Source: Paraliomyxa miuraensis (GTDB taxonomy: Bacteria; Myxococcota_A; Polyangia; Nannocystales; Nannocystaceae). From it: a stretch of DNA of 64,000 nt. The notes under the pieces are model-generated. The model worked only from the letters and a program-made list of their open reading frames with translations, made no database searches and was not told the origin of the DNA. Made by a program: the position numbers and the translations under genes. Each line of letters opens with the position of its first letter. The first letter of the stretch is position 1. The DNA lies in NCBI RefSeq assembly GCF_026337845.1, contig NZ_JAOVZF010000146.1:57015-121014 (forward strand), written 5' to 3'. This document shows positions 1,749 to 60,510 of the stretch, piece after piece.

Positions 1749-1885
1749 CGGGGGTCAGGGTATCACGGGCCCTTCCGTGTTCGTCCCGCACGCGCTCGGT
1801 TTCACCGTTCGTGGTCGCGCTGTTGGGCGTCGACTTCCTGGAGTCTACTCATGCCCTCGCCATGAACCGCGCGGGTACGGCTCGC

Positions 1886-3934
1886 TCACTGTGCGCCGGC
1901 CGCTGCCGCCTCGGGCTCGTCGGTCATGCCCAGCAGGCCCAGCAACCAGTCGTCGGGATGGTAGGCCCGCACGAGCGCGCAGCCGTCGACCAGGGTCACC
2001 CATGCCGCCTCGCCCTGCTGCGGGTCGTCGAAGCGGGCCACGAGCTCGTCCCCGGTCAGGGCCACGTTCATCACGACCATGTCCCACAGCGCTCGGTGGG
2101 CGCCGCGCAGCACGAGATCCAGACCGCGCTGCCACTGGAAGCAGTGCAGATCGTCGCCGTCCTCGAGCACGTCCACGTGATCCATGGTGATGCGCACGGG
2201 CGTGGTCCGATCGCGTGCGTCGAGCATGAAGCGAGCGGCGTGGTCCGACTGGAGGAACTTCTCCCCGTAGAAGTCGTGCACGAACGCCTCGTAGCGCCGG
2301 TAGACCTCCTCGCGCTCCTGCGTGGACATGGCGGGGTCGACCACGTGCAGGTGGTTGGACGGGTACTCGCTGTGCCACGACTCGACCGCCTCCGACCCGC
2401 ATCCCGAGGGCAGCACGCGCAGGCCAAACCGCTCGGGGGTGCGGCCGACCTCGGCCGACCGCGTGGCCTCGAAGCGAAACAGGTTGATGTCGGCCACGCA
2501 GTCGGCGTGGGCGCGAAACGACGCCAGCGACTGCATCGCGTCGGCAAAGGTCGTGGTGGGCAGATCCATGATGATGTTCATGTGGACCGTGATGCCGTTG
2601 TCGCGCGCGAGCCGGAGGAAGGCGCTGATCTCCGCCTCGGTCGAGGCCTTGCGCACCACCTTCAGCACCCGATCGGTCATGGTCTCCACGCCCACCACGA
2701 TCCGCTCGCACCCCGACCGGCGCATGATGGCGAAGGTCTCCTCGCCGAAGTGCCGCTCCACCATCACGAAGGAGCCCCAGCGGACGTCGAGCCCGCGCTC
2801 CAAGATCCGCAGCCCGGACTTCCGGGCGAAGGCGGGCGGCAGGGCCTCGGTGACGTAGGTGAAGCGGCGGATCCCGTGCGTCGCGATCTGGTGCTCCATC
2901 TCGTCGACGAAGCGATCCTCCGAGCGCGTGCGATAGCGGGGGTTGCCCTCATAGAGCTCCACGTAGTCGCAGTAGGCGCATCGCCCCCAGTAGCAACCCC
3001 GCGCCTGGACCACGCTCAAGATCGGGTCGGCCAGCCGCGCCAGGATCTCGGCGTCGTAGTGCGGGAACGCCAGCTCCTCGAGCGCGACCCCGGCCTCCGC
3101 GGGGTTGATCTGGACTCGCCCCTCGACGCGGCTGGCCACGCCCGAGACCTCGGCCGGCGCCCACTGCCGGCCCGCGACCTGCTCGCAGAGCGCCAGCAAG
3201 GGCCGCTCCCCCTCGAAGCGCACGATTGCGTCCACCGGCGCCGCCTCGAGCACCCGGGCCACATCGTCGGGCGCCATCAGGCTGAAGGTGGAACCGCCGA
3301 GCACGACGCGAACATCGGGCCGCACCTCGCCGATGCAGCGGGCCAGGATCAGGCTCGGCCCCAGCTGCGGGGCCATCGACGCGGAGATCCCGACCAGCGC
3401 GACATCGGGGGCGCCGCGCAGCCACGACAGGTACTCGCTCTGCCGATAGAAGCGGGCGTAGAACTCATGGATCTCGCTGCGGCCGAACGCCTCCGAGAGG
3501 CACGCGCCCACGCTTTGGTCCACGCGGTACGGCTGGCACAACCAGTGGAGCAGCATCCTTGGGTTGTAGCCGCGGGGGTAGTGCCCGCGTACGCGCCCCT
3601 GCTCGTCGTGGAAGGGCCGCTCGAGCCGCTGGATCACGCGCGCGGCCATGGCCGGCGAACTGGTGGGGGCGAACACCTCCCCGTCGAAGGCGAAGCCGTG
3701 CTCGAGCCGCTCGAGGTGCTCGGGCCGCAGCAGGTGCTCGAAGAGCCGGCTGTTGAGGTCGTGCTGCTCGGCGACGAAGCCATGCGCCCGTAGGTGCCCG
3801 GCCAGGACCGCCGTGGATGGGTAGTAGGCGCCGAACGAGGAGAACACCTGCGGCGGGAACACCAGCGAGACGAGCGGGGTCCCCGGCGCGGGCTCGACTG
3901 GAGGGTTGTGCGTACCTGGGTCGGCTTCGTTCAT
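1886..3934 (-). CDS. B12-binding domain radical SAM protein (class B rSAM, probable methyltransferase or other tailoring enzyme)
   Basis: N-terminal Rossmann-like cobalamin-binding region (LVSLVFPP..., VVLGGSTFSLMAPDD). Cys triad GCYWGRCAYC followed by the typical TRSEDRFVDEMEH stretch. Its stop abuts the start of the carbamoyltransferase gene. Confidence 0.8.
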   Translation of the reverse strand: MNEADPGTHNPPVEPAPGTPLVSLVFPPQVFSSFGAYYPSTAVLAGHLRAHGFVAEQHDLNSRLFEHLLRPEHLERLEHGFAFDGEVFAPTSSPAMAARVIQRLERPFHDEQGRVRGHYPRGYNPRMLLHWLCQPYRVDQSVGACLSEAFGRSEIHEFYARFYRQSEYLSWLRGAPDVALVGISASMAPQLGPSLILARCIGEVRPDVRVVLGGSTFSLMAPDDVARVLEAAPVDAIVRFEGERPLLALCEQVAGRQWAPAEVSGVASRVEGRVQINPAEAGVALEELAFPHYDAEILARLADPILSVVQARGCYWGRCAYCDYVELYEGNPRYRTRSEDRFVDEMEHQIATHGIRRFTYVTEALPPAFARKSGLRILERGLDVRWGSFVMVERHFGEETFAIMRRSGCERIVVGVETMTDRVLKVVRKASTEAEISAFLRLARDNGITVHMNIIMDLPTTTFADAMQSLASFRAHADCVADINLFRFEATRSAEVGRTPERFGLRVLPSGCGSEAVESWHSEYPSNHLHVVDPAMSTQEREEVYRRYEAFVHDFYGEKFLQSDHAARFMLDARDRTTPVRITMDHVDVLEDGDDLHCFQWQRGLDLVLRGAHRALWDMVVMNVALTGDELVARFDDPQQGEAAWVTLVDGCALVRAYHPDDWLLGLLGMTDEPEAAAAGAQ

Positions 3935-3937
3935 GAC

Positions 3938-5968
3938 TCACCCCACATGGACTCGGAGGACCCCGGCGCGACCGAGCTCCACGAGCGCCGTGCCCAGCTC
4001 TTCGGGCGACACGGCGCGTCGCCACGCACGAGCAACTTCCGCCCGCAGCGCCTCGCCATGGTGCCCCTCTCGAACGCCCCACAGGATCGCCGCCCACGGC
4101 TCCGGAAACTCCCGCACCAGGGTGCCCCACGGGGTCTCGATGCAGATCGAGAGCGGCATCGATCCATCGAGTACCTCCAGCACGTCACCGTCGTCGCGCG
4201 GCCGGACCTGCACGTCCCGCACGCGCTCGGACACCGCGTAGCCCAGCTCGAGGGGGGTGGTCACGCCGGGAGGGCGCTCGATCACCCGATCGTGCAACAC
4301 GCAGGCATCGAGCCCGCTGGTCAGCAGACAAAGCAGCGCGTCGTCGGGGGTCTCGACCAGCGGCTCGCCTCGCACGTTGAACGAAGTGTTGAGCAGCAGC
4401 GGCACGTTGGTCCGGGCGAAGAATCGCTCGATGAGCGCATGGAAGCGCGGCAGGACCTGCCGCGACACGGTCTGGATGCGCGCGGTGCCGTCGACGTGGA
4501 CCACCGCGGGAACCAGTTCGCGGCAGCTCGGGGCCACCGGGCAGATCCTCAGCATGAAGGGGCTGTCCTCCGTGGTCTCGCCCCAGTCGAACCACTGCGC
4601 CGCGTGCTCCTCGAGCACCGACGCCGCAAACGGCCGAAACCACTCACGCCGCTTGATCGCGGCGTTGAGCCGCTCCTTGGCCTCCGCGCGCCGTGGGTCG
4701 CACAGGATGCTGCGCTGACCCAGCGCGCGCGGCCCCAGCTCGCTGCCCCCCTGGAACCAGCCCAGGATCTGGCCGTCGAGGAGCCGGTCGACGACCTCCT
4801 CGACGACATCGTCACGCGAGGAGGCGGTCGGCCCCAGGGGCGGGTACTCGGTGCCCGTGGCGTCGCGGCGCAGCCGCGGGCGGGCGACCCTCACGGGCGC
4901 CGGCTGGCGATCGAGCCACCACTGCAGGCCGTAGTAGGCGGCCCCGATGGCCGTGCCGCTGTCCTCCGCGGCGGGGGTGATGAACACCTCCTCGAAGCCG
5001 GACTCGCGAATGATGCGCTCGTTGAGCAGGCCGTTGAGCGCCACGCCGCCGGCATAACACAGGTGCGGGTGCGGGCAGCGTCGACGGAGCTCGCCCACCA
5101 CCGCCAGCACGGCGTGCTCGAGGGCCGCCTGCGCGGACGCGGCCAGGTCGGCGTACTGCTCATGCCGGGCGGGCCAGCGCTCCTCGGTACGAAACAGCGT
5201 GCAGACCTCGTCGCGATAGTGCACCTGGCCGTCCGCGTCCACCTTCAGGAACGCGCTCGTGGGAATGGTGGGCCGACCGTAGGACGCCAGGCCCATCACC
5301 TTGCCGGCGTGCCGCGGGTTGCCGAAGATCTGCTGGGCGACCGCCGAGTAGAGCCCGCCCAGGCTCTCGAATCGAGGCATGCGACCGAGTTGCTCGTGGC
5401 CTCGCTCGAGCCACGCCCGCGACACCTGCTTGGCGAGGGGCGTGACCCGAAGCGCCGGGGCCCCGAGGCCGGTCGCCTCGTAGAGTGAGATCGCCTCGTA
5501 GCAAGGACCGTCACCGGCCCATGGGCCGCCCTCGACGATCGTGCGACGCTCGCTCGGATCGAGATCGACCAGAGGTGAGCCCACACCGTCGATGACCAGC
5601 ACCGCCGCGCGTTCGTAGCCCGCGCTCGCAATCGCGCTATGAGCATGTCCCAAGTGGTGGGACAACGACAGCAGACGCCCCTGTCGATGTAGTGGCTCGA
5701 ATTGCAAATTGTGCAAAGGATCGTGATCGGGTTCGCTGCGACCGGGGCACGAGCAGATCACCACGCAGTCCAGTTCGTCCACCCCGATTCCGGCGTGGGA
5801 TAGACAGTACGAGGTCGCCAGCGACGGCCGACCCGCGAAGATTCGTGTGCGCTTGACCCGTGTGAGGCGCTCTTCCTGGATCGCCACCACGAGCTCGGAG
5901 CCTCGCAGCAGGCACGCCGCGCCGTTGTGCGATGCATTGACGCCTAGAATCCATGGAGCAGTAGCCAC
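3938..5968 (-). CDS. NodU/CmcH-family carbamoyltransferase
   Basis: ILGVNASHNGAACLL... N-terminal carbamoyltransferase signature plus the C-terminal carbamoyltransferase domain. The track ORF begins with about 157 codons of low-complexity non-protein-like sequence. I placed the start at the in-frame GTG (MATAPWILGVN...), which has a GGGGA 12 nt upstream. Confidence 0.75.
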   Translation of the reverse strand: MATAPWILGVNASHNGAACLLRGSELVVAIQEERLTRVKRTRIFAGRPSLATSYCLSHAGIGVDELDCVVICSCPGRSEPDHDPLHNLQFEPLHRQGRLLSLSHHLGHAHSAIASAGYERAAVLVIDGVGSPLVDLDPSERRTIVEGGPWAGDGPCYEAISLYEATGLGAPALRVTPLAKQVSRAWLERGHEQLGRMPRFESLGGLYSAVAQQIFGNPRHAGKVMGLASYGRPTIPTSAFLKVDADGQVHYRDEVCTLFRTEERWPARHEQYADLAASAQAALEHAVLAVVGELRRRCPHPHLCYAGGVALNGLLNERIIRESGFEEVFITPAAEDSGTAIGAAYYGLQWWLDRQPAPVRVARPRLRRDATGTEYPPLGPTASSRDDVVEEVVDRLLDGQILGWFQGGSELGPRALGQRSILCDPRRAEAKERLNAAIKRREWFRPFAASVLEEHAAQWFDWGETTEDSPFMLRICPVAPSCRELVPAVVHVDGTARIQTVSRQVLPRFHALIERFFARTNVPLLLNTSFNVRGEPLVETPDDALLCLLTSGLDACVLHDRVIERPPGVTTPLELGYAVSERVRDVQVRPRDDGDVLEVLDGSMPLSICIETPWGTLVREFPEPWAAILWGVREGHHGEALRAEVARAWRRAVSPEELGTALVELGRAGVLRVHVG

Positions 5969-6130
5969 GACACGATTCGTCCCCGGCCTTGCGGCGCTGT
6001 TGGTCGTTTCCGTTCGGTCTCCGAGCGAAAATGACCCGACGTCGGCCGTCCCCTTCGAATCATCGACTTTCGAGGACGACGCCGAATAGGATACAGTGAG
6101 CCCCCAACGATACCAAGAGGTAGAGTACCG

Positions 6131-6484
6131 ATGAGCTGGTGGACCAAGGACCTCATCCTCGAGTTTCGCAAGAGGATGTTCACGGACGAGAAGTTTCGAG
6201 CGAAGTTCGTCTCCGATCCCACCGGGACCCTGCGTGCCATGGGCGCGAAGGTCCCCGAAGGTGCCCAGATCCCCGCGCCCACCCTCAAGGATCTCGAGGT
6301 GCGGATCGCCGAGATCAAGAAGTCGGTAGGCGACGACAAGATGCCCGAGCTGTGGTCGACCGATGGGCTCGAGCGCCTCGAGAAGGCGGGCATCCCCACT
6401 GCGAAACTCGGGATCCTCGGCGGGGCCAAGAAGCCCCACCTGCGCGCGGTGATCGAGTCGTTCAAGATCGTCGACGAGCCCTGA
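6131..6484 (+). CDS. Candidate RiPP precursor peptide with an NHLP-like leader (117 aa, GG motif, Cys-free C-terminal tail AKKPHLRAVIESFKIVDEP)
   Basis: AAGAGG ribosome-binding site 12 nt upstream of the ATG, and high GC3. The segment DEKFRAKFVSDPTGTLRAMGAKVPEG resembles the conserved core of nitrile-hydratase-leader-peptide family precursors. The ORF ends 17 nt before the rSAM/SPASM gene. Confidence 0.5.
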   Translation: MSWWTKDLILEFRKRMFTDEKFRAKFVSDPTGTLRAMGAKVPEGAQIPAPTLKDLEVRIAEIKKSVGDDKMPELWSTDGLERLEKAGIPTAKLGILGGAKKPHLRAVIESFKIVDEP

Positions 6485-6501
6485 GGCCCGAGCGATTTGC
6501 G

Positions 6502-7719
6502 ATGACGCGCCGCCGACACCAGACGCTCGTCCTCTCGTACACGCTGACCTGCAACGCTCGCTGTGCGCACTGCGTGTCGCTGGCGGGACCCAAGGTCAAG
6601 CGCCGCATGCCCCTGGCCGAGGCGCTCGAGATCTATACGGGCGCGGCGCGCTCGGGCCTCTTCGACACCGTGTACCTCACGGGGGGAGAGAACCTCCTGC
6701 ACCGGGACGATGTGCTGGAGCTGTGCCGGCACGGGACCGCGCTGGGGTTGCGCACGGAGGTGATCAGCAACGGCTTTTGGGCGCTCGACGTCGAGCGGGG
6801 TCTGGCCTTCCTCGCGCCCCTGGTCGAGGCGGGGCTCTCGACCCTCCAGATCTCGATCGATCACCACCACCTGCCCTACGTGGCGGCCCCGCGGGTCCGC
6901 CACGCGCTCGAGGTGGTACGCCGACTGGGGCTGCAGCCGCAGCTGTGCACTGCGATCGACCGCAAGGAGCCGGCCCCGCCGCCGGAGATCGAGGATCCGA
7001 TCCAGGCAGGCCGCCTGCGGCTCGACCAGGTCACCGCGGAGTCCTTCGATGCGCTGGTCGCCGCGGAGTGGGCGGCCATCGACCCCGACGTGGAGCAGCT
7101 GCTGGTGCTCTACGGGGTACCTCGCTCGGAGTGCGTCCCCGTCCACGTCAAGAGCAGCCTGCTGCGCGCGGGAGACCCCCGGGCCGAGGCGATCGTGGCT
7201 CGCTACGTGCACCCGAAGATCGTCGTGCACCACCAGTACACGGGTCCGGTCGGCCGCGGGGCGACGCTCGAGGCGCTACCCCGGTGGCACGTGGACCAGT
7301 GGCAGGACGAGAGCTGCCACCAGGCCGGCGAGTCACCGCTGGTCACCGCCGAGGGTGACGTGTTCCCCTGCTGCTCGAGCTGGGCCAACGAGCCCCAGAT
7401 GCGAACCACCCGCTGCTCCGGTGGCAACGTGGAGGAGATCACCCACGCCATCCGGCAGGATCCGATCGCGCGGTTCATGCACTACCAGGGCCCGCGCCAG
7501 CTGGTGGTGTTCCTGCGAGCGCAGGGCCACGACCTCCCGGAGCAGTACGGCAACATCTGCGACTTCTGCTCCTCGCTGCTGGCGCGCTTCTCTCGACCGC
7601 AGCTCGAGGCCTTCATCGAGCAGTATTATCAGGACCAGCCCCACCGGCGCACGTTTGCCACCCGCGGCCTGGTGTTCGACGCCCAGGTGCAGGATCACGA
7701 GGCGTTCTCGTCGATCTGA
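6502..7719 (+). CDS. Radical SAM/SPASM-domain peptide-modifying enzyme (putative maturase)
   Basis: CNARCAHC (CxxxCxxC) cluster near the N-terminus, and GGE motif. A C-terminal Cys-rich auxiliary-cluster region (CHQAG...FPCCSSW...TRCSGG...NICDFC) resembles a SPASM or twitch domain. The start ATG (MTRRRHQTLVLSY...) was chosen because the track ORF N-terminus overlaps the precursor in another frame. Confidence 0.85.
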   Translation: MTRRRHQTLVLSYTLTCNARCAHCVSLAGPKVKRRMPLAEALEIYTGAARSGLFDTVYLTGGENLLHRDDVLELCRHGTALGLRTEVISNGFWALDVERGLAFLAPLVEAGLSTLQISIDHHHLPYVAAPRVRHALEVVRRLGLQPQLCTAIDRKEPAPPPEIEDPIQAGRLRLDQVTAESFDALVAAEWAAIDPDVEQLLVLYGVPRSECVPVHVKSSLLRAGDPRAEAIVARYVHPKIVVHHQYTGPVGRGATLEALPRWHVDQWQDESCHQAGESPLVTAEGDVFPCCSSWANEPQMRTTRCSGGNVEEITHAIRQDPIARFMHYQGPRQLVVFLRAQGHDLPEQYGNICDFCSSLLARFSRPQLEAFIEQYYQDQPHRRTFATRGLVFDAQVQDHEAFSSI

Positions 7720-7777
7720 TCGAGGCCCAGGAGCTGGTCGAGTCGGTTGCGACCGACCGCGCTATGCTCTGGCCCGC

Positions 7778-8860
7778 ATGCCCTCGCCGAGGATCGCACG
7801 GCCCGAGCCCGCCGCGGCTCGAGACCGCCGCCACCATGGCGACGGCCACACGCGGACGCGAGGGCTCGTGGTCGGCCGCGCCGCGGGACTCGCTGCCCTC
7901 GCGGGTCTATCGGGCTGCGCGGGCGAGCTGACGGTGCTCGCCGCCATGGCCTTCGGCATGACCCTGGGCGCGTGGTTGCTGAGCGCGGGTCGTCAGCGTC
8001 GAGCGCTCTACGAGGCGGAGTATCTGCGCCGGGCCATCGCCACCGGCCAGCACCGCGAGCTCGAGGCCACCTTGCGTCGCGAGCTCGCGCTGGTCGAAGC
8101 CGGCGAGGCCGTGAGCCCCGAGCGTCAGTGGATGGCCCGCGCCCAGCTCGGCGGGCTGATGGTGGCCGAGTGGCGACTCGACGAGGCAAGGGGGATCTAC
8201 GCGGGCATTCCCCTCGGTGGCGGGGCCAAGGCACTGCCCGGCGATGTGCTCGATCCCCTGGCGCTGCCCGGCGATGCTCCCGCCGACGAAGACGAAGGAG
8301 CTCCGCCCGCGCCGATCGAGGCGCCCGCGAGCGAGGCCGAGCTCGCCCCTCATCTACGCGCCCTGGCCTCGTTCGGCCGCCACGAGCTGGCGGTGCTCAC
8401 CGAGGCTCCCAACGAGGCGCGGCTCGAGGCGATTCGCCGCGACCGCGACGAGTGCCTGCGCCACGTGCCCACCGTGTTCCGTGGCGATGTGGAGCTGGCC
8501 TGGAACGCGCTCGAGGGGCTGTGCCTCGTTCGCATGGGCCGGGCCCGCGAGGGCGTCGACCGGCTCGCGAGCGGGCTGTCGGCGCTCGAGTACAACCCGG
8601 CCCTGGTGGTCTACCTCTTCCACCTCGGGCAGGCCTATGAACACATTGGGGAGCGCAAGATGGCGGCAACGCGCTACGAGGAAGCCGCCAAGGCGTTCCC
8701 CGGCACCCGCCTGGCCAGCGAAGCGCAGGCCCGCCTGCGAGCGCTCGGATCCTCCGGAGGTGGTGAGGGCAGCATGTTCCGCGCGATGCTTCCCGAGGTC
8801 CCCGCCGCCAACTCCAGCAATGCGTCGTTCCCCATGGGCGACGACGAGCCCAAGACCTGA
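7778..8860 (+). CDS. Hypothetical lipoprotein or membrane protein with TPR-like helical repeats
   Basis: Internal start MPSPRIARPE..., then signal peptide and lipobox (LAALAGLSGC), then an alpha-helical Ala/Leu/Arg-rich region. The start is uncertain. Confidence 0.45.
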   Translation: MPSPRIARPEPAAARDRRHHGDGHTRTRGLVVGRAAGLAALAGLSGCAGELTVLAAMAFGMTLGAWLLSAGRQRRALYEAEYLRRAIATGQHRELEATLRRELALVEAGEAVSPERQWMARAQLGGLMVAEWRLDEARGIYAGIPLGGGAKALPGDVLDPLALPGDAPADEDEGAPPAPIEAPASEAELAPHLRALASFGRHELAVLTEAPNEARLEAIRRDRDECLRHVPTVFRGDVELAWNALEGLCLVRMGRAREGVDRLASGLSALEYNPALVVYLFHLGQAYEHIGERKMAATRYEEAAKAFPGTRLASEAQARLRALGSSGGGEGSMFRAMLPEVPAANSSNASFPMGDDEPKT

Positions 8861-9075
8861 CCCAGTCGGCCCGTTCCTGGCCGCTCCACGCCGCCGAACC
8901 GGCGCGCGTCCGGCTCGGTCCGTGAGCCGCCCTTGTCGCTCCAACCGGCTCGGATCCATGTTCCGCACGCAAATGGCCGAAACCCTTGGAATCTTGGCCG
9001 GCTTTGAAGTGCGAATTACGCGCTTTTACCAAAAAGAGGCCGAGCCGTTGATCGCTTGGTAAATTCTGAAACGCC

Positions 9076-9912
9076 GTGGTCACGAAGGACCGCAAGCCAG
9101 GCCGGCTCCGCCGGGCCCTCAAGACCGTCACCCACAGTGTGGAGTACGCCCGGCACCTTGCTCGGGGCAATCACTTCGCGGGTGACATCTCCTGGACCAA
9201 GCCCGGAAGCCCCCCGGTCGTTCTCGCGCACGGGTTCATGGGCACGCGCGGAACGATGATTCCGCTGACCCAGCGCTTCCAGTCCGACGGTCGAGTGGTG
9301 TTCAGCTACCACCACGGCACGTTCCAGCTGCGGTCGCTGCGGGCCTCCGCCCAGCAGCTGGTCGATCACCTCGGACGACTCGAGCGCGAGCTGGGGGTCG
9401 AGCGGGTCGACGTGGTGGGCTTCAGCATGGGCGGTCTCATTGCCCTGCATGCGCTCAAGTTCCTGCAGGCCCAGCGCTGGATCCGTCGCCTGGCTCTATT
9501 GGGCTCGCCCACCAGCGGCACCTGGGTGGGCCTGGCCGGGGTGGGCACGGTGGGCCTGGTGAGCCCCTCGGTGTGGCAGGTGCTGCCCACCAGTCCCTTC
9601 CTCCGCGACCTTCGCGATGCCCCCATGCCGCCCGGAGTGCGGGTCCGTCAGGTCAGCGCCGCCGAGGATGCCTTCTGCCCGCGACCCGAGCTGCTCGAGG
9701 GCGTGGACGGAGAGCGAGACTACCTGGTGCTGCCCGGCGGACACTCGTCGCTGGTGGTCACGCGGCCGTTCTACAACAAGCTGCGCGAGTTCTTCGACGA
9801 GCCCGAGCCCGAGCCGGCGACGGTGGTGGGCACGGTGTGCAGCAGCGGGCTCGAGTCCATGCCTGCTGCTGCGGCCGAGGGATCGCCGACCGACTCGGGC
9901 GCAGCCGCGTAG
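9076..9912 (+). CDS. Alpha/beta-hydrolase fold lipase/esterase (lipase class 2 / PGAP1-like)
   Basis: VVLAHGFMG oxyanion motif and GFSMGG nucleophile elbow. GTG start without a clear ribosome-binding site. Confidence 0.7.
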   Translation: MVTKDRKPGRLRRALKTVTHSVEYARHLARGNHFAGDISWTKPGSPPVVLAHGFMGTRGTMIPLTQRFQSDGRVVFSYHHGTFQLRSLRASAQQLVDHLGRLERELGVERVDVVGFSMGGLIALHALKFLQAQRWIRRLALLGSPTSGTWVGLAGVGTVGLVSPSVWQVLPTSPFLRDLRDAPMPPGVRVRQVSAAEDAFCPRPELLEGVDGERDYLVLPGGHSSLVVTRPFYNKLREFFDEPEPEPATVVGTVCSSGLESMPAAAAEGSPTDSGAAA

Positions 9913-9970: not shown

Positions 9971-10915
9971 CTACATCGGCAGCACGCACGCGCCCACGTT
10001 CTCGTAGCCCGGCGGGGCCAAGCCGGGCTCGTACCACGGCGTGCACACTTGCCCCGGCAGGCATGGCGGCATGAGATCGTCGAGCGCACAGAACGGAGTG
10101 CAACAACCATTCCCCATGCAATCGGGAACGACATCCGCGCTGGCACAGAAATTCCCGCCGTCGCACACGTTGATGTACTCGCACGGATCGCCAGGCTCCC
10201 CCATGTCGCCCGAGGCATCGACCGCGCACATGAATTCGTCGTTGATCGGGTAGCAGGCCCTGCCGTCGTTGCAGTCCTGCAGCAGCGGGTCGCAGTGGGG
10301 CAGGCACAGCGCCAGCACGCCATCGCTGCTCAGCAAGCACGTGGAATTCTCGTCCTCGCAAAACGGGTTCTCCTCCGAGCCCACGCAGAACGCCACACAG
10401 GTGCCTTCGTTGGTGTCCGGGTCCACGTCCCAGCACATCAGGCCGTAGTCGCAGCTGTCGACCCCGCTCACCCCGCTGCCCTCCACCACGCACGCCTCGC
10501 CCAGGCCATCGGGATCTTCGGCCACCGGAGAGCAGCGGGTGGCGTTCCACGAGTTGCCGCCGTCGTTGGCCCACGGCATGCACTTCTCACCTTCGGGGCA
10601 GTCTTGCTCGAAGATTCCGCACTGGTCTCCCCAGTCGAGGTCATCGGGCTGCGGGATGAAGTTGCTCCACGTCTCGTCGCCCGGCGACTCGCCGAAGGTC
10701 TCGCTCGCGGTCGTGCTGGTGGTGGTAATCGTGGTCCCGGCCGTGGTGCCCGGCGACGTGGTGCTCGGCACCGTGGTGCTCGGCGGAGGGATGCTTGTGG
10801 TGCTGCCCTCGTCTCCCGAGCCCGTCTCGTCGTCGAGCTGGACGATGGGACCACAGGCCCCGCCAATCCCCATCGCAATCACGACCACACCCCATCCCCG
10901 AGTCCAGGACCTCAT
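9971..10915 (-). CDS. Cysteine-rich secreted lipoprotein (hypothetical)
   Basis: Signal peptide with lipobox, then a Ser/Thr/Pro-rich linker, then a domain with more than 30 Cys. High GC3. Confidence 0.65.
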   Translation of the reverse strand: MRSWTRGWGVVVIAMGIGGACGPIVQLDDETGSGDEGSTTSIPPPSTTVPSTTSPGTTAGTTITTTSTTASETFGESPGDETWSNFIPQPDDLDWGDQCGIFEQDCPEGEKCMPWANDGGNSWNATRCSPVAEDPDGLGEACVVEGSGVSGVDSCDYGLMCWDVDPDTNEGTCVAFCVGSEENPFCEDENSTCLLSSDGVLALCLPHCDPLLQDCNDGRACYPINDEFMCAVDASGDMGEPGDPCEYINVCDGGNFCASADVVPDCMGNGCCTPFCALDDLMPPCLPGQVCTPWYEPGLAPPGYENVGACVLPM

Positions 10916-11003
10916 GGACTCCGGGATAGCACGACTGGTGTTGGATTGGTTGGGATTATTCGAAAAGAGTGTTTTCGTGAGGGCCAGCTCGCCGGATTCG
11001 CGT

Positions 11004-12584
11004 TCACGTCGGCAGGTACGCCAGCATCAGCCCGTTGGTCAGGTTGGGCGCATCGCAGCTGTACTGGAAGCCGGTGAGCGGGTTCTGCTGCACGCCCGAG
11101 GTGGCCCCGGCTCCGCTGTTGCCCGGGTCGCCCACGCTGATGGTGTCCGGGTAGCAGACCTGGATCGAGCCGTCTTGCTGGAACATGGCCTGGACCCGGA
11201 TGAGGTCGGCGACGCTCCCGCCATAGAACGGCACGTCCCACTGCACCACGAAGCGCTGGTTGGGCGCCGCCCCCAGGGTCTGGTAGCGCACCGCACCGGC
11301 CGAGCTGGGATCGAGATCGGTCCAGAACGGCGCGAGGATGTAGTTGGTGACCGGGCTGAACGTGTCACCCGGCATGCACACGTTGAGGTAGTCGAGGTAG
11401 TCGGTCGAGTTGAAGTAGATCGCACCGTTGGAGGCGATCGTGGCCTGGGTGAACGGCACGCCATAGAACGTGAACGTAAAGCCCATCGGCACGCCGACCT
11501 CGTCGTCGTCGTCGAGGAACGCATTGGTCCCGGAGGCGCTGATGTCGTCGCAGGGCAGCGGCATCGGGTTCAGCGAGATGCCCGTGTAGAAGGCGTCGCT
11601 GCCGAACGGGACCCCGGGGATGTCGCAGCCCGAGAAGTCGAATTGGCAGCCGGGGGTGCACGCCAGCACCCCGCCCATCAGCCCCAGGCTGGCGCAGCTC
11701 GCCCCGCCCAGGTTCATGCCATCGCAGGCCTCGCCGGCGTCGACGATGGCGTTGCCGCACGTGTTGCACCCCGAGATGTCGAAGGCGCTGCAGTCGGCGT
11801 CGCACGCCAGCACGCCGCCCACGTAGCCCTGGCTCACGCACGTCTCCCCGCCGAGGTCGACGCCATCACACGGCTCGATGCCATCGATGAGATCGTTGCC
11901 GCACTGGATGCAGCTGGCCACGTCGTAGGACAGGCAATCGGCGGAGCAGCCCAGCTGGCCGCTCGAGTAGCCCTGGCTCATGCACGTCTGGCCGAGCAGC
12001 ACGATCGAGTCGCAGACCTCGTCGCCATCGACGATGACGTTGCCGCAGGTGCCACAGTCGCTGGTGTCGAGCGCGCTGCAATCGAGCGCGCAGGTGATCG
12101 TGCCGCTGTCGAAGCCCTCGCCCTCGCAGGTGACGCCGCCCACGTCGGCTCCATCGCAGACCTCGCTGCCCTCGACGACCCCGTTGCCGCAGTTGAACAT
12201 CGCGCACGCGCGGGTGTCGTAGCCCGAGCAATCGGCGGCACAGGCCAGCTGCCCCGAGTCGAAGCCCTGGCTCGCGCAGGTCTCCCCGGACAGCTCGTCG
12301 CCATCACAGACCTCGTCGCCATCGAGCATGCCGTTGCCACAGGTCTGCACGTCCGTGGTGCTCGAGTCGGGATCGATCGAGGTCGAGCCGGTCGAGGAGC
12401 TCTCGTCCGCGACGGTGGTCGAGTCGGGATCGACATCGGTGGTGAGCGGCGGAGTGGCGGGACCGGTGCTGCCGTCGTCCGAGCTGCTGCCGTCGACGGG
12501 GACGGGCGGGATGTCGATGCCGGGACAGGCGGTGAGCAGGCCGGCGCCCGCGAGCATGACCAAGGAGAGGGGGCGGCGTGTCAT
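11004..12584 (-). CDS. Lipoprotein with six Cys-rich repeats (CGNG..DG.E.CDG....G.TC.S.G..GG.L.C..DCS.D.S.C) and a C-terminal beta-rich domain
   Basis: Start moved to MTRRPLSLVMLAGAGLLTAC (lipobox). Tandem repeats of about 48 aa are a variant of the Myxococcus cysteine-rich repeat. Confidence 0.75.
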   Translation of the reverse strand: MTRRPLSLVMLAGAGLLTACPGIDIPPVPVDGSSSDDGSTGPATPPLTTDVDPDSTTVADESSSTGSTSIDPDSSTTDVQTCGNGMLDGDEVCDGDELSGETCASQGFDSGQLACAADCSGYDTRACAMFNCGNGVVEGSEVCDGADVGGVTCEGEGFDSGTITCALDCSALDTSDCGTCGNVIVDGDEVCDSIVLLGQTCMSQGYSSGQLGCSADCLSYDVASCIQCGNDLIDGIEPCDGVDLGGETCVSQGYVGGVLACDADCSAFDISGCNTCGNAIVDAGEACDGMNLGGASCASLGLMGGVLACTPGCQFDFSGCDIPGVPFGSDAFYTGISLNPMPLPCDDISASGTNAFLDDDDEVGVPMGFTFTFYGVPFTQATIASNGAIYFNSTDYLDYLNVCMPGDTFSPVTNYILAPFWTDLDPSSAGAVRYQTLGAAPNQRFVVQWDVPFYGGSVADLIRVQAMFQQDGSIQVCYPDTISVGDPGNSGAGATSGVQQNPLTGFQYSCDAPNLTNGLMLAYLPT

Positions 12585-12640
12585 TCGACGACTGTACTTC
12601 CGGGCTCGGGACCATGGCCAGCATCGAGACGCCGTTCCCG

Positions 12641-14059
<1,419 letters not shown>

Positions 14060-14250
14060 CAACGGACCGCGATCGGGCGGCTCTCCGCCCTTGGATGGCG
14101 GCGGCTCGCCCCGCACGGTGGTGCTGCGGTCGGACCAGGTCAGCAGGCAGCGCGACATGGTGTATCACGCACCGTCAGCGGTGCATGATGTACCGTATCA
14201 ACACGGTGCATTGTGCACCATTACCACAAGAAAGCTCAATGATTCCATGG

Positions 14251-14281: not shown

Positions 14282-15511
14282 ATGGGCACTCCCAGCATCC
14301 ACGCCGCTCCCGAGGTCTCGGTGATCGAGGGTCCCGGCGTTCACATCGAAGTCGACGCGGTCTCGCAGCTGCGTCGAGTCGCCGGCCTTCCGGGGTGCGT
14401 GCGTGCGGTGGGCATGCCCGATCTGCACCCGGGCCCGGGCATCCCCATCGGCATGGTCACCGCCTCGGCCACCCACGTGCATCCCACCCTGGTGGGCAGC
14501 GACGCGGGCTGCGGGGTCACGGCCGTGGTCACGCGGCGCGTGGTGCCGCAGGCCAAGCAGCTGCGGCGCATCGAGCGAGCCACGGTGGATCCCGATCCCT
14601 TGCCGGTCGATTCCCTCGAGGCGCTCGAGGCCGCCTGGCACGGAGGACCACGCGGCTTGGCCAATCTCGCCGGCATGCCCGAGGCGTTCGGCGAGTGGGT
14701 CGCCACGGTGCCATGGGGCGAGCCCCTCGGCCCGAGCGGTCCCATCCCCGAGGCGCTGCACGAGGCTCGCTTCGGCGAGGCGCTCGGCACCACCGGCGGT
14801 GGCAACCACTTCATCGAGCTCGGTCGCGTGGACCAGGTGCTCGACGACGACGCCCTGCCCGGCCTGCGCCGCGGGGCGCACGTGGTGATGGCCCACTCGG
14901 GCTCGCGCGGCCTGGGCTATGCGCTGGTGCAGCGCTGGCAGGAGCGAGCGCTCGGCGAGCCCGAGGAGATCGCCACCTACCTCGGCGAGCTCGCTGGCTG
15001 CTGCCGCTTTGCGCAGGCCAACCGCGCCTTGCTGGTGTGGCGGCTGCTCGAGGCGGTGGGCGCCGCCCGGGTCGATCGCCTCGGCGGCACCCTCGATCTC
15101 GTGCACAACGACGTGCGTCCCGGCGAGAGCCCGCAGGCACCGTGGGTGCACCGCAAGGGGGCCGCCCCCGCCCGTGCGGGCGAGCTGACCATCACCCTGG
15201 GCAGCCGCGGCAGTCCCAGCTGGATCCTCCGCGGTCGCGGCGACCAGGCGCACCTGTGCTCGGTGGCCCATGGTGCGGGTCGACGGATTCCCCGTGCCGA
15301 GGCCAAGGCTCGCCTGTCCCATCGCTACCGACGAAGCGATCTCACCCGCACGCCGCTGGGCGGCCACGTGCTGTGCGACCGCCAGGAGCTGCTGTGGGAG
15401 GAGCACCAAGACGTCTACAAGCCCATCGAGCCGGTGGTGGCGGCTCTCGAGCAGGCCGGGGTGGCCACCCGCGTGGCGGCCCTCGTGCCCCTGGTGACGG
15501 TGAAGCGATGA
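14282..15511 (+). CDS. rtcB: RtcB-family RNA 3'-phosphate ligase (short RtcB2-type, 409 aa)
   Basis: Conserved GGGNHFIEL, HNDV and HGAGR motifs. Translationally coupled (ATGA) to prfH. The annotated ATG is only about 16 nt after the sigma-54 -12 element, so the true start may be the GTG at about 14321 (V14), which has a GAGG 5 nt upstream. Confidence 0.9.
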   Translation: MGTPSIHAAPEVSVIEGPGVHIEVDAVSQLRRVAGLPGCVRAVGMPDLHPGPGIPIGMVTASATHVHPTLVGSDAGCGVTAVVTRRVVPQAKQLRRIERATVDPDPLPVDSLEALEAAWHGGPRGLANLAGMPEAFGEWVATVPWGEPLGPSGPIPEALHEARFGEALGTTGGGNHFIELGRVDQVLDDDALPGLRRGAHVVMAHSGSRGLGYALVQRWQERALGEPEEIATYLGELAGCCRFAQANRALLVWRLLEAVGAARVDRLGGTLDLVHNDVRPGESPQAPWVHRKGAAPARAGELTITLGSRGSPSWILRGRGDQAHLCSVAHGAGRRIPRAEAKARLSHRYRRSDLTRTPLGGHVLCDRQELLWEEHQDVYKPIEPVVAALEQAGVATRVAALVPLVTVKR

Positions 15512-32821: not shown

Positions 32822-32825
32822 GTTG

Positions 32826-32912
32826 CGGAACGGGAGGGATTCGAACCCTCGGTAGAGTTTCCCCTACGCAGATTTAGCAAACCTGTGCCTTCAGCCACTC
32901 GGCCACCGTTCC
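32826..32912 (-). tRNA. tRNA-Ser (anticodon GCT)
   Basis: Reverse complement reads GGAACGGTGGCCGAGTGGCTGAAGGCACAGGTTTGCTAAATCTG...GAGGGTTCGAATCCCTCCCGTTCCG. Acceptor, D, anticodon (GCT) and T arms are present, with a long variable arm typical of Ser tRNAs. Confidence 0.85.
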
Positions 32913-33058
32913 ACAGGTCCCGGGGTGCTCGGGGCACCCTTTCCAAATTGGCGCTTTGCTGGTTTGCGGGGGCGGGAAGGTAACCGCGGTCGGGGGGCCC
33001 TGGCAAGCGGGGGCACCGGGGGCTGCTCCTTGCTGGCACGGGCGGCGGTGGGCATGCT

Positions 33059-33808
33059 GTGGCCGCGATGGGGCAGCGCGGCAGGAGGCTCTGGCGGGGC
33101 TTGGCCGAGCTCGGGATGGCCTTTGGCGGGCTCGTGCTCGGCTACGTGGTGGTCGCGGCGGGGATGAGCGCCGTGGGCCTGGGCTCCGGGCCGCTCGCCT
33201 TGCTGGCGGGGCCCCTGATCACCGGGGTGGCGGCGGCCTTCTACGGCAAGATCGGGCCGCTGTGGGCTGCGATGGCCAGGGGGCAGGAGGACGAGCCCGA
33301 CCCCGATCCCGCTCCTTGGCACGAGCCACCGGTCGCTGGCTTGGGGACGGCACTGGTCACGGTGCCCCTGGGGGTGCTCGCGGCGCTGGGGGGGAGCATC
33401 CTCTTGGGGCTGCTGCTCGAGCAGCTCGGGATGCGGGTGCAGGAGCAGTCGAGCGTCCTGGAGATCACCGAGGGGGTTGTCGCCCGAGGATTCGACCTGC
33501 AGGCGAGCATGCTGGTGCTCGCGGCGCTCGTGCTGGCGCCCATCGCCGAGGAGTGGCTGTTTCGGGGCTTGCTGTTTCGCCGGGTCACCGCCGTCTCCGG
33601 GCGCGGGCTGGCCTACGCCGTCAGCGCGCTGGGCTTTGCGGCAATCCACGGCAACCCGGCCGGCTTCGTGGTCTATCTATGGCTGGGGTTGGTGTTCGCG
33701 GCGGTGTTGGAGCGCAGTGGACGGCTGTGGACCGCGGTGCTGGTGCACATGGGGAACAATGGGTTCGTGCTGGCGCTGCTGTTCAGCGGCAGCGAGCTGG
33801 CCGGGTAG
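33059..33808 (+). CDS. CPBP-family intramembrane glutamic endopeptidase (CAAX protease-like)
   Basis: EEWLFRG, FAAIHG and HMGNN motifs, with several transmembrane helices. Confidence 0.8.
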   Translation: MAAMGQRGRRLWRGLAELGMAFGGLVLGYVVVAAGMSAVGLGSGPLALLAGPLITGVAAAFYGKIGPLWAAMARGQEDEPDPDPAPWHEPPVAGLGTALVTVPLGVLAALGGSILLGLLLEQLGMRVQEQSSVLEITEGVVARGFDLQASMLVLAALVLAPIAEEWLFRGLLFRRVTAVSGRGLAYAVSALGFAAIHGNPAGFVVYLWLGLVFAAVLERSGRLWTAVLVHMGNNGFVLALLFSGSELAG

Positions 33809-33927
33809 GGCGCGACGGGGAGGTCGGGGAGGCCGGGGAGGGCGTGAGGGATCGCTCGCGCTGGTGGGTGAACGGGGTTGCGAGGTGGCACCGGGATGGG
33901 TAGTCTCCGCGACCCACGAGCGCTCAT

Positions 33928-34001
<74 letters not shown>

Positions 34002-34008
34002 CTGCGAG

Positions 34009-52315: not shown

Positions 52316-52335
52316 CCGGCGGTCGGGACACCCGA

Positions 52336-52378
52336 CGGGCTGGCCGGGGCGGCTGGCCGAGGCGGCTGGCCGAGGCGT
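52336..52378 (+). repeat. Tandem direct repeat (GGCTGGCCGAGGC x2 plus a degenerate third copy) in the intergenic region upstream of the rSAM gene
   Basis: Observed sequence gggctggccggggcggctggccgaggcggctggccgaggcg. Confidence 0.5.
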
Positions 52379-52390
52379 TGGGCATGCGCC

Positions 52391-53254
52391 ATGATGGCCC
52401 GCCGCGCGATGACCCGACTCACCGTCACCGATCACGACCGCGATGCCGCGGGCCTGACCTATGTGTACCCGGTGGTCTCTCGTCGGGCCGGGGGCGTGTC
52501 GGTGGGGATCAACCTGAACCCCAACAACGCCTGCAACTGGCGCTGCGTGTACTGCCAGGTGCCGGGGCTCGTGCGCGGCGCGGCGCCGCCCATCGACGTG
52601 GATCGGCTCGAGGCCGAGCTGCGCGGGTTCCTGGGGCGAGCACAGCGCCAGGAGTGGCTCGAGCGCAACGTCGAGGAGCCCTACCGCCGCGTGGTCGACG
52701 TGGCGTTCTCGGGCAACGGCGAGCCCACCACCAGCGATCAGCTCGACGAGATCGTCGCGCGCGTGCTCGACGTGCTGCACGGCGAGGGGCTCGCCGACCT
52801 GAACAAGGTGCTCATCACCAACGGGTCGCAGCTGCATCGGCCGGCGGTCCAGCCCGCGGTGGAGCGGCTGGGCCGGGCGGGCGGCGAGGCGTGGTTCAAG
52901 TTCGACAGCGCCACCGCGGCCGGGCGCAAGGCGATCAACGATGCGGCCGGGTCGCCGCAGCGTGCCCGCGAGAACCTGCGGATCTGCGCCGGCCTGTGCC
53001 GCACGCGGATCCAGACCTGCGTGATCGCCATCGATGGCGAGCCCCCGAGCGAGGCCGAGCAGTCGGCCTACCTCGCGTTCCTGGCCGAGGAGCTCGCCGC
53101 GGGCACCGCCCTCCACGACGTGCTGCTCTACGGCATGGCCCGGCCGCCGCAGCAGCCGGGAGCGCAGCGGCTGTCGCGGCTACCCGATGCGTGGCTGGAG
53201 GGCTTCGCCGCGCGGATCCGCGGCGTGGGGCTCCCGGTCATCGTGCGCGCGTGA
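52391..53254 (+). CDS. Small radical SAM protein (287 aa)
   Basis: CNWRCVYC (CxxxCxxC) and FSGNGEPT (GGE-like SAM-binding motif). Its 3' end overlaps the convergent downstream gene by about 75 nt. Confidence 0.75.
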   Translation: MMARRAMTRLTVTDHDRDAAGLTYVYPVVSRRAGGVSVGINLNPNNACNWRCVYCQVPGLVRGAAPPIDVDRLEAELRGFLGRAQRQEWLERNVEEPYRRVVDVAFSGNGEPTTSDQLDEIVARVLDVLHGEGLADLNKVLITNGSQLHRPAVQPAVERLGRAGGEAWFKFDSATAAGRKAINDAAGSPQRARENLRICAGLCRTRIQTCVIAIDGEPPSEAEQSAYLAFLAEELAAGTALHDVLLYGMARPPQQPGAQRLSRLPDAWLEGFAARIRGVGLPVIVRA

Positions 53255-59707: not shown

Positions 59708-59787
59708 GAGCGGTGTTCGGAGTATCGCATGCCCGAGCCGACGGCGGGGGGCTTGTCGTGCCCTGCGATCCATGGTCCCGTCCCGCC

Positions 59788-60510
59788 ATGCCCGATGCGC
59801 GCGGAAGCTCGCCTTCGCCCTGGACCGTGGTGGGCGAGCCCACCATCGAAGAGACCAACGAGCACATGTGGATCGTCCGCGGACACGTGCCCCGGATGCC
59901 GCTGGGGCGCTACATGGTGGTCGTTCGCATGGAGGACGGCCGCTTGCTCGTCCACAACGCGGTGGCGCTGCCCGAGGCCGACATGAAGCGCCTCGAGGAC
60001 TGGGGCGAGGTGGCCTACCTCGTGGTGCCCAACGGCTTCCATCGCATGGATGCCAAGGCATTCGCCGACCGCTACCCCAACGCCAAGGTGGTCGCTCCGG
60101 TCGGGGCCCGGCCCAAGGTCGAGGAGGTCGTCCCGGTCGATCTCACCTACGATCGCTTCGAGGGCGACGGCGTGGTCTCGCTGCGGCACGCCGCGGGCAT
60201 CGACGAGAAGGAAGGCGTGATGACGGTGACCGCCGAGGACGGCAAGACCATGGTGTTCACCGATCTATTGTTCAACGTGCCGCACCAGCGGGGCCTGATG
60301 GGGCTGGTGATCCGCCTGATGGGCTCCACCGGCGGGCCCAAGGTCACGTGGCTGTTTCGCAAGGTGGCGCTGCGCGACAAGGAGGCGCTGCGAGGCTTCA
60401 TGCAGCAGCTCTCGGGCACCGAGGGGCTCGTGCGCCTGGTCCCCGGCCACGGCGTGGTGATCGACGAGGCTGCGAGCCAGACCCTGGCCGCGGTGGCGGA
60501 GCGGCTCTAG
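59788..60510 (+). CDS. DUF4336-like / metallo-hydrolase-like protein (hypothetical)
   Basis: 241 aa from MPDARGSS..., with high GC3. Pattern is similar to the DUF4336 family. Confidence 0.5.
   Translation: MPDARGSSPSPWTVVGEPTIEETNEHMWIVRGHVPRMPLGRYMVVVRMEDGRLLVHNAVALPEADMKRLEDWGEVAYLVVPNGFHRMDAKAFADRYPNAKVVAPVGARPKVEEVVPVDLTYDRFEGDGVVSLRHAAGIDEKEGVMTVTAEDGKTMVFTDLLFNVPHQRGLMGLVIRLMGSTGGPKVTWLFRKVALRDKEALRGFMQQLSGTEGLVRLVPGHGVVIDEAASQTLAAVAERL

Follow-up and report, generated by a model that had tools for sequence, protein, structure and literature searches.

Radical S-adenosylmethionine (SAM) enzymes are known to introduce D-amino acids into ribosomal peptides by two routes: PoyD-type enzymes, which have a C-terminal RiPP recognition element (RRE; RiPP, a peptide made on ribosomes and modified after translation), work with the nitrile-hydratase-leader-peptide (NHLP) leaders of the proteusins, and EpeE/YydG works with the short-leader epipeptides of Firmicutes. 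Reviews treat these two routes as unrelated. The proteusin epimerases PoyD and OspD have neither homology to EpeE nor an auxiliary cluster, and epipeptides have short leaders (PMC8326336, PMC13012085); how two radical SAM epimerase systems evolved has been raised as a question (PMC8326336). Here we describe a block of four genes, spanning positions 1886-7719 of a 64,000-nucleotide stretch of the Paraliomyxa miuraensis genome (the window, contig NZ_JAOVZF010000146.1), in which an EpeE-type enzyme is paired with what appears to be an NHLP-clan leader, as it is in a set of sister clusters found in metagenomes. We consider the block to be most likely a RiPP cluster, in which the core of a 117-residue precursor is probably epimerised by the EpeE-like enzyme and further tailored by carbamoylation and B12-dependent methylation.

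The epipeptide system of B. subtilis (peptide YydF/EpeX, enzyme YydG/EpeE) resembles the locus on the enzyme side. The 405-residue radical SAM enzyme of the block shows homology to EpeE in its radical SAM core as well as in its C-terminal twitch-type (T-SPASM) domain, and it keeps the CxxxCxxC motif, the four auxiliary-cluster cysteines and the hydrogen-donor cysteine of the PCC motif. The putative core peptide is likewise rich in Val and Ile and free of cysteine, which is what epimerase chemistry expects. In contrast to the ~49-residue YydF-type peptides and their short leaders, however, the precursor is 117 residues long with a predicted folded NHLP-clan leader, the host belongs to the Myxococcota rather than the Firmicutes, the locus additionally encodes a B12-radical SAM enzyme and a carbamoyltransferase, and the four genes include neither a YydH-like protease nor a YydIJ-like ABC transporter. 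On the leader side, the locus is closer to the proteusins (polytheonamides, landornamide, aeronamides), with which it shares a large leader, predicted to be structured and apparently related to nitrile hydratase alpha, a Gly-Gly junction, predicted D-residues and predicted B12-dependent C-methylation. It differs from them in its EpeE-like enzyme with auxiliary-cluster cysteines in place of a PoyD-type enzyme (PoyD being set apart here by its description in the literature), in a leader that falls below the TIGR03793 cut-off, and in a B12 enzyme outside the TIGR03975 subfamily of the PoyB/PoyC type. Our best reading of the product is a hybrid of proteusins and epipeptides, with D-residues and probable methylation and carbamoylation.

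All four products are exact RefSeq matches in P. miuraensis, and the precursor is annotated there as 'hypothetical protein' (WP_266215900.1). Because the window is ~70% G+C, open reading frames (ORFs) were screened by third-position GC (GC3). A sequence-only reading of this stretch had described a cysteine-free ORF of 117 codons with GILGG and a 19-residue tail, separated by 17 nt from a radical SAM gene, and, across a 162-bp divergent spacer, a carbamoyltransferase/B12 gene pair on the minus strand; re-reading the sequence confirmed all of these features. The ORF (6131..6484, plus strand) contains DEKFRAKFVSDPTGTLRAMGAKVPEG, its GILGG occupies residues 94-98, its tail is AKKPHLRAVIESFKIVDEP, and it has no Cys residue anywhere. 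Between its stop codon (6482-6484) and the ATG of the radical SAM gene at 6502, the gap reads GGCCCGAGCGATTTGCG. The AAGAGG previously placed in this gap as a ribosome-binding site (RBS) sits instead 10 nt ahead of the ATG of the precursor ORF, which it serves, and the order of the minus-strand genes from the shared promoter also had to be corrected: the carbamoyltransferase gene is proximal and the B12 gene distal, with 3 nt between them. Within the spacer we found no sigma-70 consensus, riboswitch/Rfam family or inverted repeat, and its fold is not unusual (z-score -1.4). No terminator above shuffle expectation was found.

The 117-residue ORF is coding. Its GC3 is 0.87-0.90. In a comparison with a related Myxococcales metagenome-assembled genome (MAG), GCA_020431265.1, all 7 changes that fall in codons 77-117 against contig L001 of the MAG (a 90%-identical relative) are synonymous, and the linker codons 43-76 carry 11 non-synonymous and 5 synonymous differences. 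The core AKKPHLRAVIESFKIVDEP is identical in one homologue (P0001) and differs by 2 residues in another (P0002). Hidden Markov models (HMMs) of the NHLP clan match only residues 14-47 of the precursor, all below threshold: TIGR03793 reaches 22.9 bits against a cut-off of 50.9, NF038399 matches at 4e-5 and TIGR04509 at 7e-5. The Nif11 leader model TIGR03798 gave no match to the precursor. The earlier proposal of an NHLP-like leader is supported as far as the clan, at scores short of the curated thresholds. Because the clan scores lie below the curated cut-offs, we place the leader outside TIGR03793, as what its sequence suggests is an uncurated branch of the clan. An AlphaFold2 (AF2) model built from nine sequences predicts a helical bundle at residues 6-85 (predicted local distance difference test, pLDDT, ~80-89) and a disordered core tail (pLDDT <55), and the top five PDB matches of the leader model in Foldseek comprise 8tb1, which is the nuclear magnetic resonance structure of a proteusin precursor, together with Os1348 and a nitrile hydratase alpha subunit; they fit the theme of an NHLP leader but, at E >=1, are weak statistically.

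The enzyme encoded next to the precursor had been labelled a radical SAM/SPASM enzyme. The first half of that label stands, as Pfam Radical_SAM is found in both radical SAM proteins of the block and the CxxxCxxC motif is formed by C17, C21 and C24 (residues 17-24, nt 6550-6573). The second half does not: Pfam SPASM remains sub-threshold (0.022, 15.5 bits against 21.5), and the enzyme has one auxiliary-cluster motif, twitch-like, rather than a full SPASM domain. Its best NCBIfam model is TIGR04078 (YydG; 5e-24, 85.2 bits against an equivalog cut-off of 300), and models of crosslinking or cofactor maturases reach no more than 38 bits, with matches confined to the N-terminal core; for PqqE, the StsB sactisynthase, nif11 maturase 3 and the GDL-motif and SCM maturases the maximum is 35 bits. 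The best PDB sequence matches are the EpeE entries 8ai1-8ai6, at 5.5e-17 with the single sequence and 6e-30 with a family profile, with both domains covered. Comparison of an AF2 model (pLDDT 69) by Foldseek led to the same protein, with the top 9 matches all EpeE (5e-11 to 4e-10), the next match at 2e-5, and 17-18% identity in the structural alignment. The enzyme's C272, C290, C291, C353 and C356 align with EpeE C206, C222, C223, C289 and C292 (the EpeE numbering was fixed from the aligned entry, 8ai6, the D210A mutant), and all five are invariant in two family alignments. C291 is the counterpart of EpeE C223, the experimentally supported hydrogen donor; Asp210, adjacent to the auxiliary cluster, is the proposed proton relay of EpeE, which epimerises Val and Ile residues (PMC13012085).

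The same signature extends to more distant relatives. A HMMER scan of 1.84 billion representatives returned 2,064 relatives at E <1e-10, of which only five are both close and full-length. The spacing C-x(8-30)-CC-x(35-110)-CxxC is kept in 134 of the 140 top full-length representatives, and YydG is the best model, always sub-threshold, in all ten that we sampled. The apparent loss of CxxxCxxC in P0005 is a gene-call artefact that truncates the protein; the motif is encoded in frame upstream. Judged by sequence and by modelled fold, the 405-residue enzyme does not appear to belong with the streptide, triceptide or darobactin enzymes; EpeE/YydG is the one close relative that has been characterised. 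Thus, C-alpha epimerisation is the best-supported candidate for its reaction.

If the 117-residue ORF is a precursor, related leaders should recur beside related enzymes. Searched on its own against 5.8 billion protein clusters, the ORF returned just two close homologues, and a metagenome scan with the precursor alignment confirmed no relative; distant leader relatives were found by anchoring on the radical SAM alignment. They adjoin homologous radical SAM enzymes: the metagenomic contig L003 holds three of them, a Planctomycetota MAG (L007/L097), L052 and L095 hold two each, and L050/L089-94, L051 and L098 hold one each. In all, homologous leaders occur in 8 different lineages of the cluster and share 22-36% identity with the window precursor; the named phyla are Myxococcota and Planctomycetota, and the other members come from unclassified metagenome contigs. 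The shared leader is ~70 residues long, and R13, D19, R23, F26, P30, G38, P42, R58, G67 and the junction Gly, which is the last Gly of GILGG (G98), are invariant in both family alignments. Most members carry the C-terminal motif TISAFGT(L/I)DW, to which VIESFKIVDEP of the window precursor aligns at I108, F111 and D115; the first two match the TISAF-type members, and D115 is invariant. All members match TIGR03793, TIGR04509 and NF038399 over their first 30-40 residues, below the curated cut-offs. Because a nine-member profile retrieves only 9 proteins from the whole database of 5.8 billion, the family is real but very rare. An EpeE-like gene adjoins the precursor in every locus with enough DNA (L003, L007/L097, L050/L089-94, L051, L052, L095, L098). 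A rare family with a common leader that, where the context suffices, always stands beside an EpeE-like gene bears out the earlier proposal of a RiPP-type cluster, and the role of the 117-residue ORF as its precursor is well supported.

The sister clusters also indicate which further enzymes accompany this family. B12-radical SAM genes do so in L003, L007, L089, L052 and L095, and the encoded enzymes carry a Cx7Cx2C motif and exceed the cut-off of TIGR03975 (RiPP radical SAM C-methyltransferase) with 457-514 bits. The larger clusters are equipped in the manner of proteusins, with methyltransferases of TIGR03975, an N-methyltransferase resembling HemK and an NHLP ABC exporter, and L003 combines an NHLP-type C39 ABC exporter (TIGR03796, 658 bits) with a carbamoyltransferase.

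Several members differ from one another in organisation. L003, L089, L095 and L097 (e.g. L089:48-12203) have a fixed sub-operon of a HemK-like methyltransferase, an EpeE-like enzyme, a ~190-residue protein of no known family and a TIGR03975 B12-radical SAM enzyme, and they further encode two additional enzymes of each kind, EpeE-like and B12, along with one to three precursors; the conserved ~190-residue accessory protein has no homologue in the window. Some large clusters add an aminotransferase/GFO-IDH fusion, glycosyltransferases or AMP-binding/PCP (peptidyl carrier protein) proteins. At L098:2012-3658 (GCA_037024535.1), the enzyme P0017 has a fused N-terminal domain of ~100 residues homologous to the precursor leader and reads FPCN rather than FPCC, so that the equivalent of EpeE C223 is Asn; an ordinary precursor (...AYTISAFSVIDW) lies directly upstream of it. 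A Chloroflexia MAG (L008:6250-12801) has four tandem EpeE-like radical SAM genes and an NHLP-related precursor that scores 36.4 bits with TIGR04509, above the cut-off of 34, and has a hydrophobic tail rich in Val, Gly and Ala. Weak leader-like ORFs lie directly upstream of EpeE-like genes in L010, L014 and L054.

The boundaries of the P. miuraensis cluster could be read from its counterpart in GCA_020431265.1 (Table 1), where the block is spread over three contigs that align to window positions 3723->1870 (L100, 93% identity), 4571-6563 (L001, 90%) and 6657-7742 (L005, 95%). Homology stops 16 nt past the stop codon of the B12 gene and 23 nt past that of the radical SAM gene. Outside 1870 and 7742 the MAG sequence is unrelated to the window: its right flank carries Cupin_8/JmjC and AMP-binding genes, and its left flank carries genes other than those of the window. 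Because the two sequences are unrelated beyond these points, the conserved unit comprises exactly four genes, and window 1870-7742 is self-contained. That the four genes form one conserved unit, recurring at 90-95% DNA identity, agrees with the sequence-only reading. In codon comparisons with the MAG the four genes show synonymous/non-synonymous changes of 68/50, 64/40, 13/12 and 36/17; purifying selection acts on all of them. A tetratricopeptide repeat (TPR)-like lipoprotein gene (7868..8860) and an alpha/beta hydrolase gene (9076..9912), previously suggested as processing or export components, lie outside the conserved block and are absent from all sister clusters. Because both MAG flanks diverge within ~20 nt of the outer stop codons, we exclude both genes from the cluster. 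Contig L001 leaves window-like sequence at the CxxxCxxC codons of the radical SAM gene (L001:2010, window 6563) and continues into an unrelated gene for a 292-residue radical SAM/SPASM protein and a short-chain dehydrogenase/reductase (SDR) gene, and the window-type 3' half is on L005; the switch reflects a chimera of the assembly or else a second variant of the cluster.

Table 1. Features of the four-gene block in window coordinates.
Feature	Position	Strand	Details
B12-binding-domain radical SAM gene	1886..3934	-	682 aa, WP_266215898.1; distal gene of minus-strand operon
NodU/CmcH-family carbamoyltransferase gene	3938..5968	-	GTG start, 676 aa, WP_323137371.1; promoter-proximal
Divergent intergenic spacer	5969..6130		162 bp; holds precursor RBS AAGAGG at 6115-6120
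Precursor leader, residues 1-98	6131..6424	+	Predicted NHLP-clan helical domain, GILGG at end
Predicted core AKKPHLRAVIESFKIVDEP, residues 99-117, plus stop codon	6425..6484	+	
EpeE/YydG-like radical SAM gene	6502..7719	+	405 aa, WP_266215901.1; putative peptide C-alpha epimerase
Auxiliary-cluster and hydrogen-donor Cys signature	7315..7572	+	C272, C290, C291, C353, C356; CC of FPCCSS at nt 7369-7374
Block shared with related Myxococcales MAG GCA_020431265.1	1870..7742		Cluster boundaries

The minus-strand operon encodes the two putative tailoring enzymes. The carbamoyltransferase matches Carbam_trans_C (8e-65, 218 bits) and Carbam_trans_N (1e-31, 110.6 bits), both above the Pfam cut-off, and its translation contains the HHLGHAHS metal motif. 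Its best solved relatives are GdmN (1.7e-72), NovN and TobZ (range 1.7e-72 to 3e-59), with which it shares both catalytic domains (Kae1-like N, YrdC-like C); their acceptors are polyketide or aminoglycoside hydroxyls, whereas the context here is a RiPP cluster. Peptide carbamoylation has precedents in RiPP biosynthesis, namely crocagin CgnI and StdF, which converts Lys to homocitrulline (PMC13174530). As in the clusters of CgnI (Chondromyces) and StdF (Streptomyces thermodiastaticus), a NodU/CmcH-family enzyme is found in a RiPP cluster, and the core offers three Lys and one Ser as possible acceptors. The window enzyme differs, by description rather than by sequence comparison, in a C-terminal extension of ~110 residues; StdF, by contrast, forms a fusion with an S8/S53 peptidase and has YcaO/TfuA and an MNIO as its partners, and the crocagin pathway is without radical SAM enzymes. 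The closest carbamoyltransferase relative that we fetched lies inside the sister cluster L003, with 37% identity over 580 residues.

The B12 enzyme, named in RefSeq as a B12-binding domain-containing radical SAM protein, matches Pfam Radical_SAM above the cut-off (9e-13, 49 bits) and the B12-binding domain below it (5.7e-6, 26.6 bits against 32.1). Among NCBIfam models TIGR03975 fits it best, with a score of 115 bits (3e-33) that falls short of the cut-off of 281.85, and its motif, GCYWGRCAYC, is Cx4Cx2C, in contrast to the Cx7Cx2C found in the sister clusters and in the GCWWGx5CxFC motif of the TIGR03975 subfamily. By these sequence criteria it is an analogue, not an orthologue, of the sister-cluster B12 enzymes. 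The copy in MAG contig L100 is 93% identical, with 68 synonymous and 50 non-synonymous codon differences. Because its subfamily is not the one seen in the sister clusters, what ties it to the peptide is the 3-nt coupling to the carbamoyltransferase gene, together with conservation of the block. The nearest homologue that we fetched, in L025, neighbours MgtE, a glycosyltransferase and three other radical SAM/SPASM genes, from which no usable functional hint could be drawn. Both tailoring enzymes end in extensions of ~110-120 residues, at residues ~567-676 of the carbamoyltransferase (window 3938-4270), where the L003 enzyme has none, and at residues ~560-682 of the B12 enzyme (window 1886-2260). 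An RRE/PqqD-like domain was sought in them, and they gave no Pfam match at E up to 10 and no PDB sequence match; they are possible leader-binding domains. It is plausible that the B12 enzyme is a peptide C-methyltransferase and the carbamoyltransferase a peptide tailoring enzyme.

Alternatively, the block could consist of two unrelated adjoining units, a minimal RiPP pair of precursor and EpeE-like enzyme, and a carbamoyltransferase/B12 operon that acts on another substrate. NodU/CmcH enzymes mostly act on small molecules, the carbamoyltransferase is absent from most sister clusters, the B12 enzyme belongs to a different subfamily from theirs, and the L025 homologue beside MgtE has no evident RiPP context. 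The MAG-conserved block nevertheless ends exactly at the outer stop codons of both operons, so the two were inherited together; L003 has its 37%-identical carbamoyltransferase mid-cluster; B12-radical SAM genes are the most constant companions of the precursor family; and the block has no other gene able to build a small-molecule scaffold. We therefore regard two independent units as rather unlikely.

The sequence-only reading favoured a different chemistry for the EpeE-like enzyme, a C-C, C-O or C-N crosslink in the Cys-free tail of the streptide, triceptide or darobactin type. Crosslinking is indeed frequent among radical SAM enzymes that have SPASM or twitch domains, and there are aromatic residues in the family motif (F111 in the window, F and W in TISAFGTLDW). 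Moreover, EpeE is a remote homologue, at 17-18% identity in the structural alignment, its Asp210 appears not to be conserved, and the hydrogen-donor Cys is missing from P0017. Yet EpeE/YydG tops the NCBIfam, PDB sequence and structure comparisons, where no crosslinking maturase model scores near the 85 bits of YydG and EpeE ranks first by at least 6 orders of magnitude in the PDB sequence and fold searches. The CC signature, hydrogen-donor Cys included, is kept in the 134 of 140 relatives, and the single auxiliary-cluster motif sets the enzyme apart from the SPASM crosslinking maturases (streptide, darobactin, triceptide, sactipeptide, ranthipeptide), whose full two-cluster SPASM it does not have. 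Finally, the window core is without Trp, and the HLR and FKI triads in the tail are not conserved in the family. Taken together, these observations make a crosslink unlikely.

That the 117-residue ORF is a small NHLP-like accessory or regulatory protein, with the radical SAM enzyme acting elsewhere, is very improbable: although it is long for a precursor, with ~85 residues predicted to be folded, has no linked protease or exporter, and has a leader-like counterpart fused to an enzyme in L098, purifying selection is strongest on its disordered C-terminal tail, two or three paralogues with a common leader and end motif occur in sister clusters, L003 includes an NHLP-type cleavage/export ABC transporter, and large structured leaders are the norm in proteusins (PMC10858898, PMC12537861).

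Several observations weigh against an epimerised, carbamoylated and methylated proteusin-like peptide. The assignment of the leader to the NHLP clan is sub-threshold by sequence and E >=1 by fold. The radical SAM enzyme, at 85 bits against the YydG cut-off of 300, is a superfamily-level homologue and not an equivalog. Like its subfamily, it contains an insertion of ~90 residues (residues ~150-240) that is absent from EpeE, and EpeE Asp210 aligns with Ser278 in a column that is not conserved, where the local alignment is shifted by 2 residues; in the close subfamily member P0017, Asn stands at the hydrogen-donor position. Among the tailoring enzymes, the carbamoyltransferase accompanies the precursor family only in the window lineage and in L003, and in no other sister cluster; the L003 cores are without Lys; and the Cx4Cx2C B12 enzyme shares no more than 22-24% identity with the sister-cluster TIGR03975 enzymes, which have Cx7Cx2C. 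The block has no protease or exporter gene, and tblastn with all L003 cluster proteins recovered only the three enzyme homologues from the 64-kb window, with no homologue of the L003 exporter.

For epimerisation with tailoring, which we still prefer, we propose the following pathway. The helical NHLP-clan leader (residues 1-98) would present the disordered 19-residue tail to the enzymes. The CxxxCxxC cluster of the co-transcribed 405-residue enzyme would cleave SAM, and the resulting 5'-deoxyadenosyl radical would take the C-alpha hydrogen from a hydrophobic core residue, the candidates being V107/I108 and I113/V114. Cys291 would then donate a hydrogen from the opposite face to give a D-residue, and the single auxiliary [4Fe-4S] cluster (C272, C290, C353, C356) could re-reduce the thiyl radical. 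The carbamoyltransferase would form carbamoyl-AMP from carbamoyl phosphate and ATP and transfer the carbamoyl group (+43 Da) to Ser109-OH or to a Lys epsilon-amine (K100, K101, K112), and the B12-type radical SAM enzyme may methylate an unactivated carbon (+14 Da). The leader would be removed near G98 by a protease encoded elsewhere, and the mature peptide presumably exported.

The remainder of the window holds several other features. Two further radical SAM genes, at 58451-60142 (minus strand) and 52316-53254 (plus strand), one of them with SPASM (Radical_SAM 8e-24, SPASM 6e-9), lie near genes for an FG-GAP/ASPIC protein and a histidine kinase. Both flanks of the block hold genes for secreted, acidic repeat proteins rich in Cys, at 231-1748, 9971-11026 and 11004-12656 (all minus strand); the first matches TIGR02232 (myxo_disulf_rpt) and DUF4215, and the other two were recognised from their translations. 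A sigma-54 activator gene at 12641-14158 (minus strand; Sigma54_activat 1e-68) and an RtcB RNA ligase gene at 14282-15511 (plus strand; 6e-67) diverge in the usual RtcR/RtcB-like arrangement, and this pair is unrelated to the RiPP cluster. At 32825-34002, an Rce1-like CPBP protease gene (32984-33808) is enclosed by tRNA-Ser(gct) on the minus strand and tRNA-Arg(acg) on the plus strand. The sister cluster L095 likewise has an Rce1-like gene beside it; because the window gene lies 25 kb from the block, we do not tie it to the cluster.

In the literature that we searched, which does not extend to most subscription journals, so that a prior description is possible, we found no account of a RiPP or proteusin combined with a carbamoyltransferase, of such an EpeE/YydG-like enzyme set, or of the core sequences; to that extent the earlier impression of an enzyme set without prior description stands. 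More tentatively, the block may be a minimal member of an undescribed RiPP class found across several phyla, in which epimerases of the EpeE type, and not the PoyD type, act on NHLP-clan leaders and so bridge epipeptides and proteusins; the P. miuraensis product would be carbamoylated and, by a new Cx4Cx2C B12 subfamily, C-methylated, and its pathway would be the third RiPP pathway known with a carbamoyltransferase. The genome paper of the strain lists 17 clusters, and the four-gene locus is not among them; its absence from that inventory points to a gap in current mining rules. The pairing of an EpeE-type enzyme with an NHLP-clan leader makes the question of how the two epimerase systems evolved experimentally approachable. 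With four genes, a 19-residue core and a cultured host strain, the P. miuraensis version is the simplest member to reconstitute, and it provides a system in which to study how EpeE-like enzymes recognise leaders, a new B12-radical SAM subfamily and the carbamoylation of peptides.

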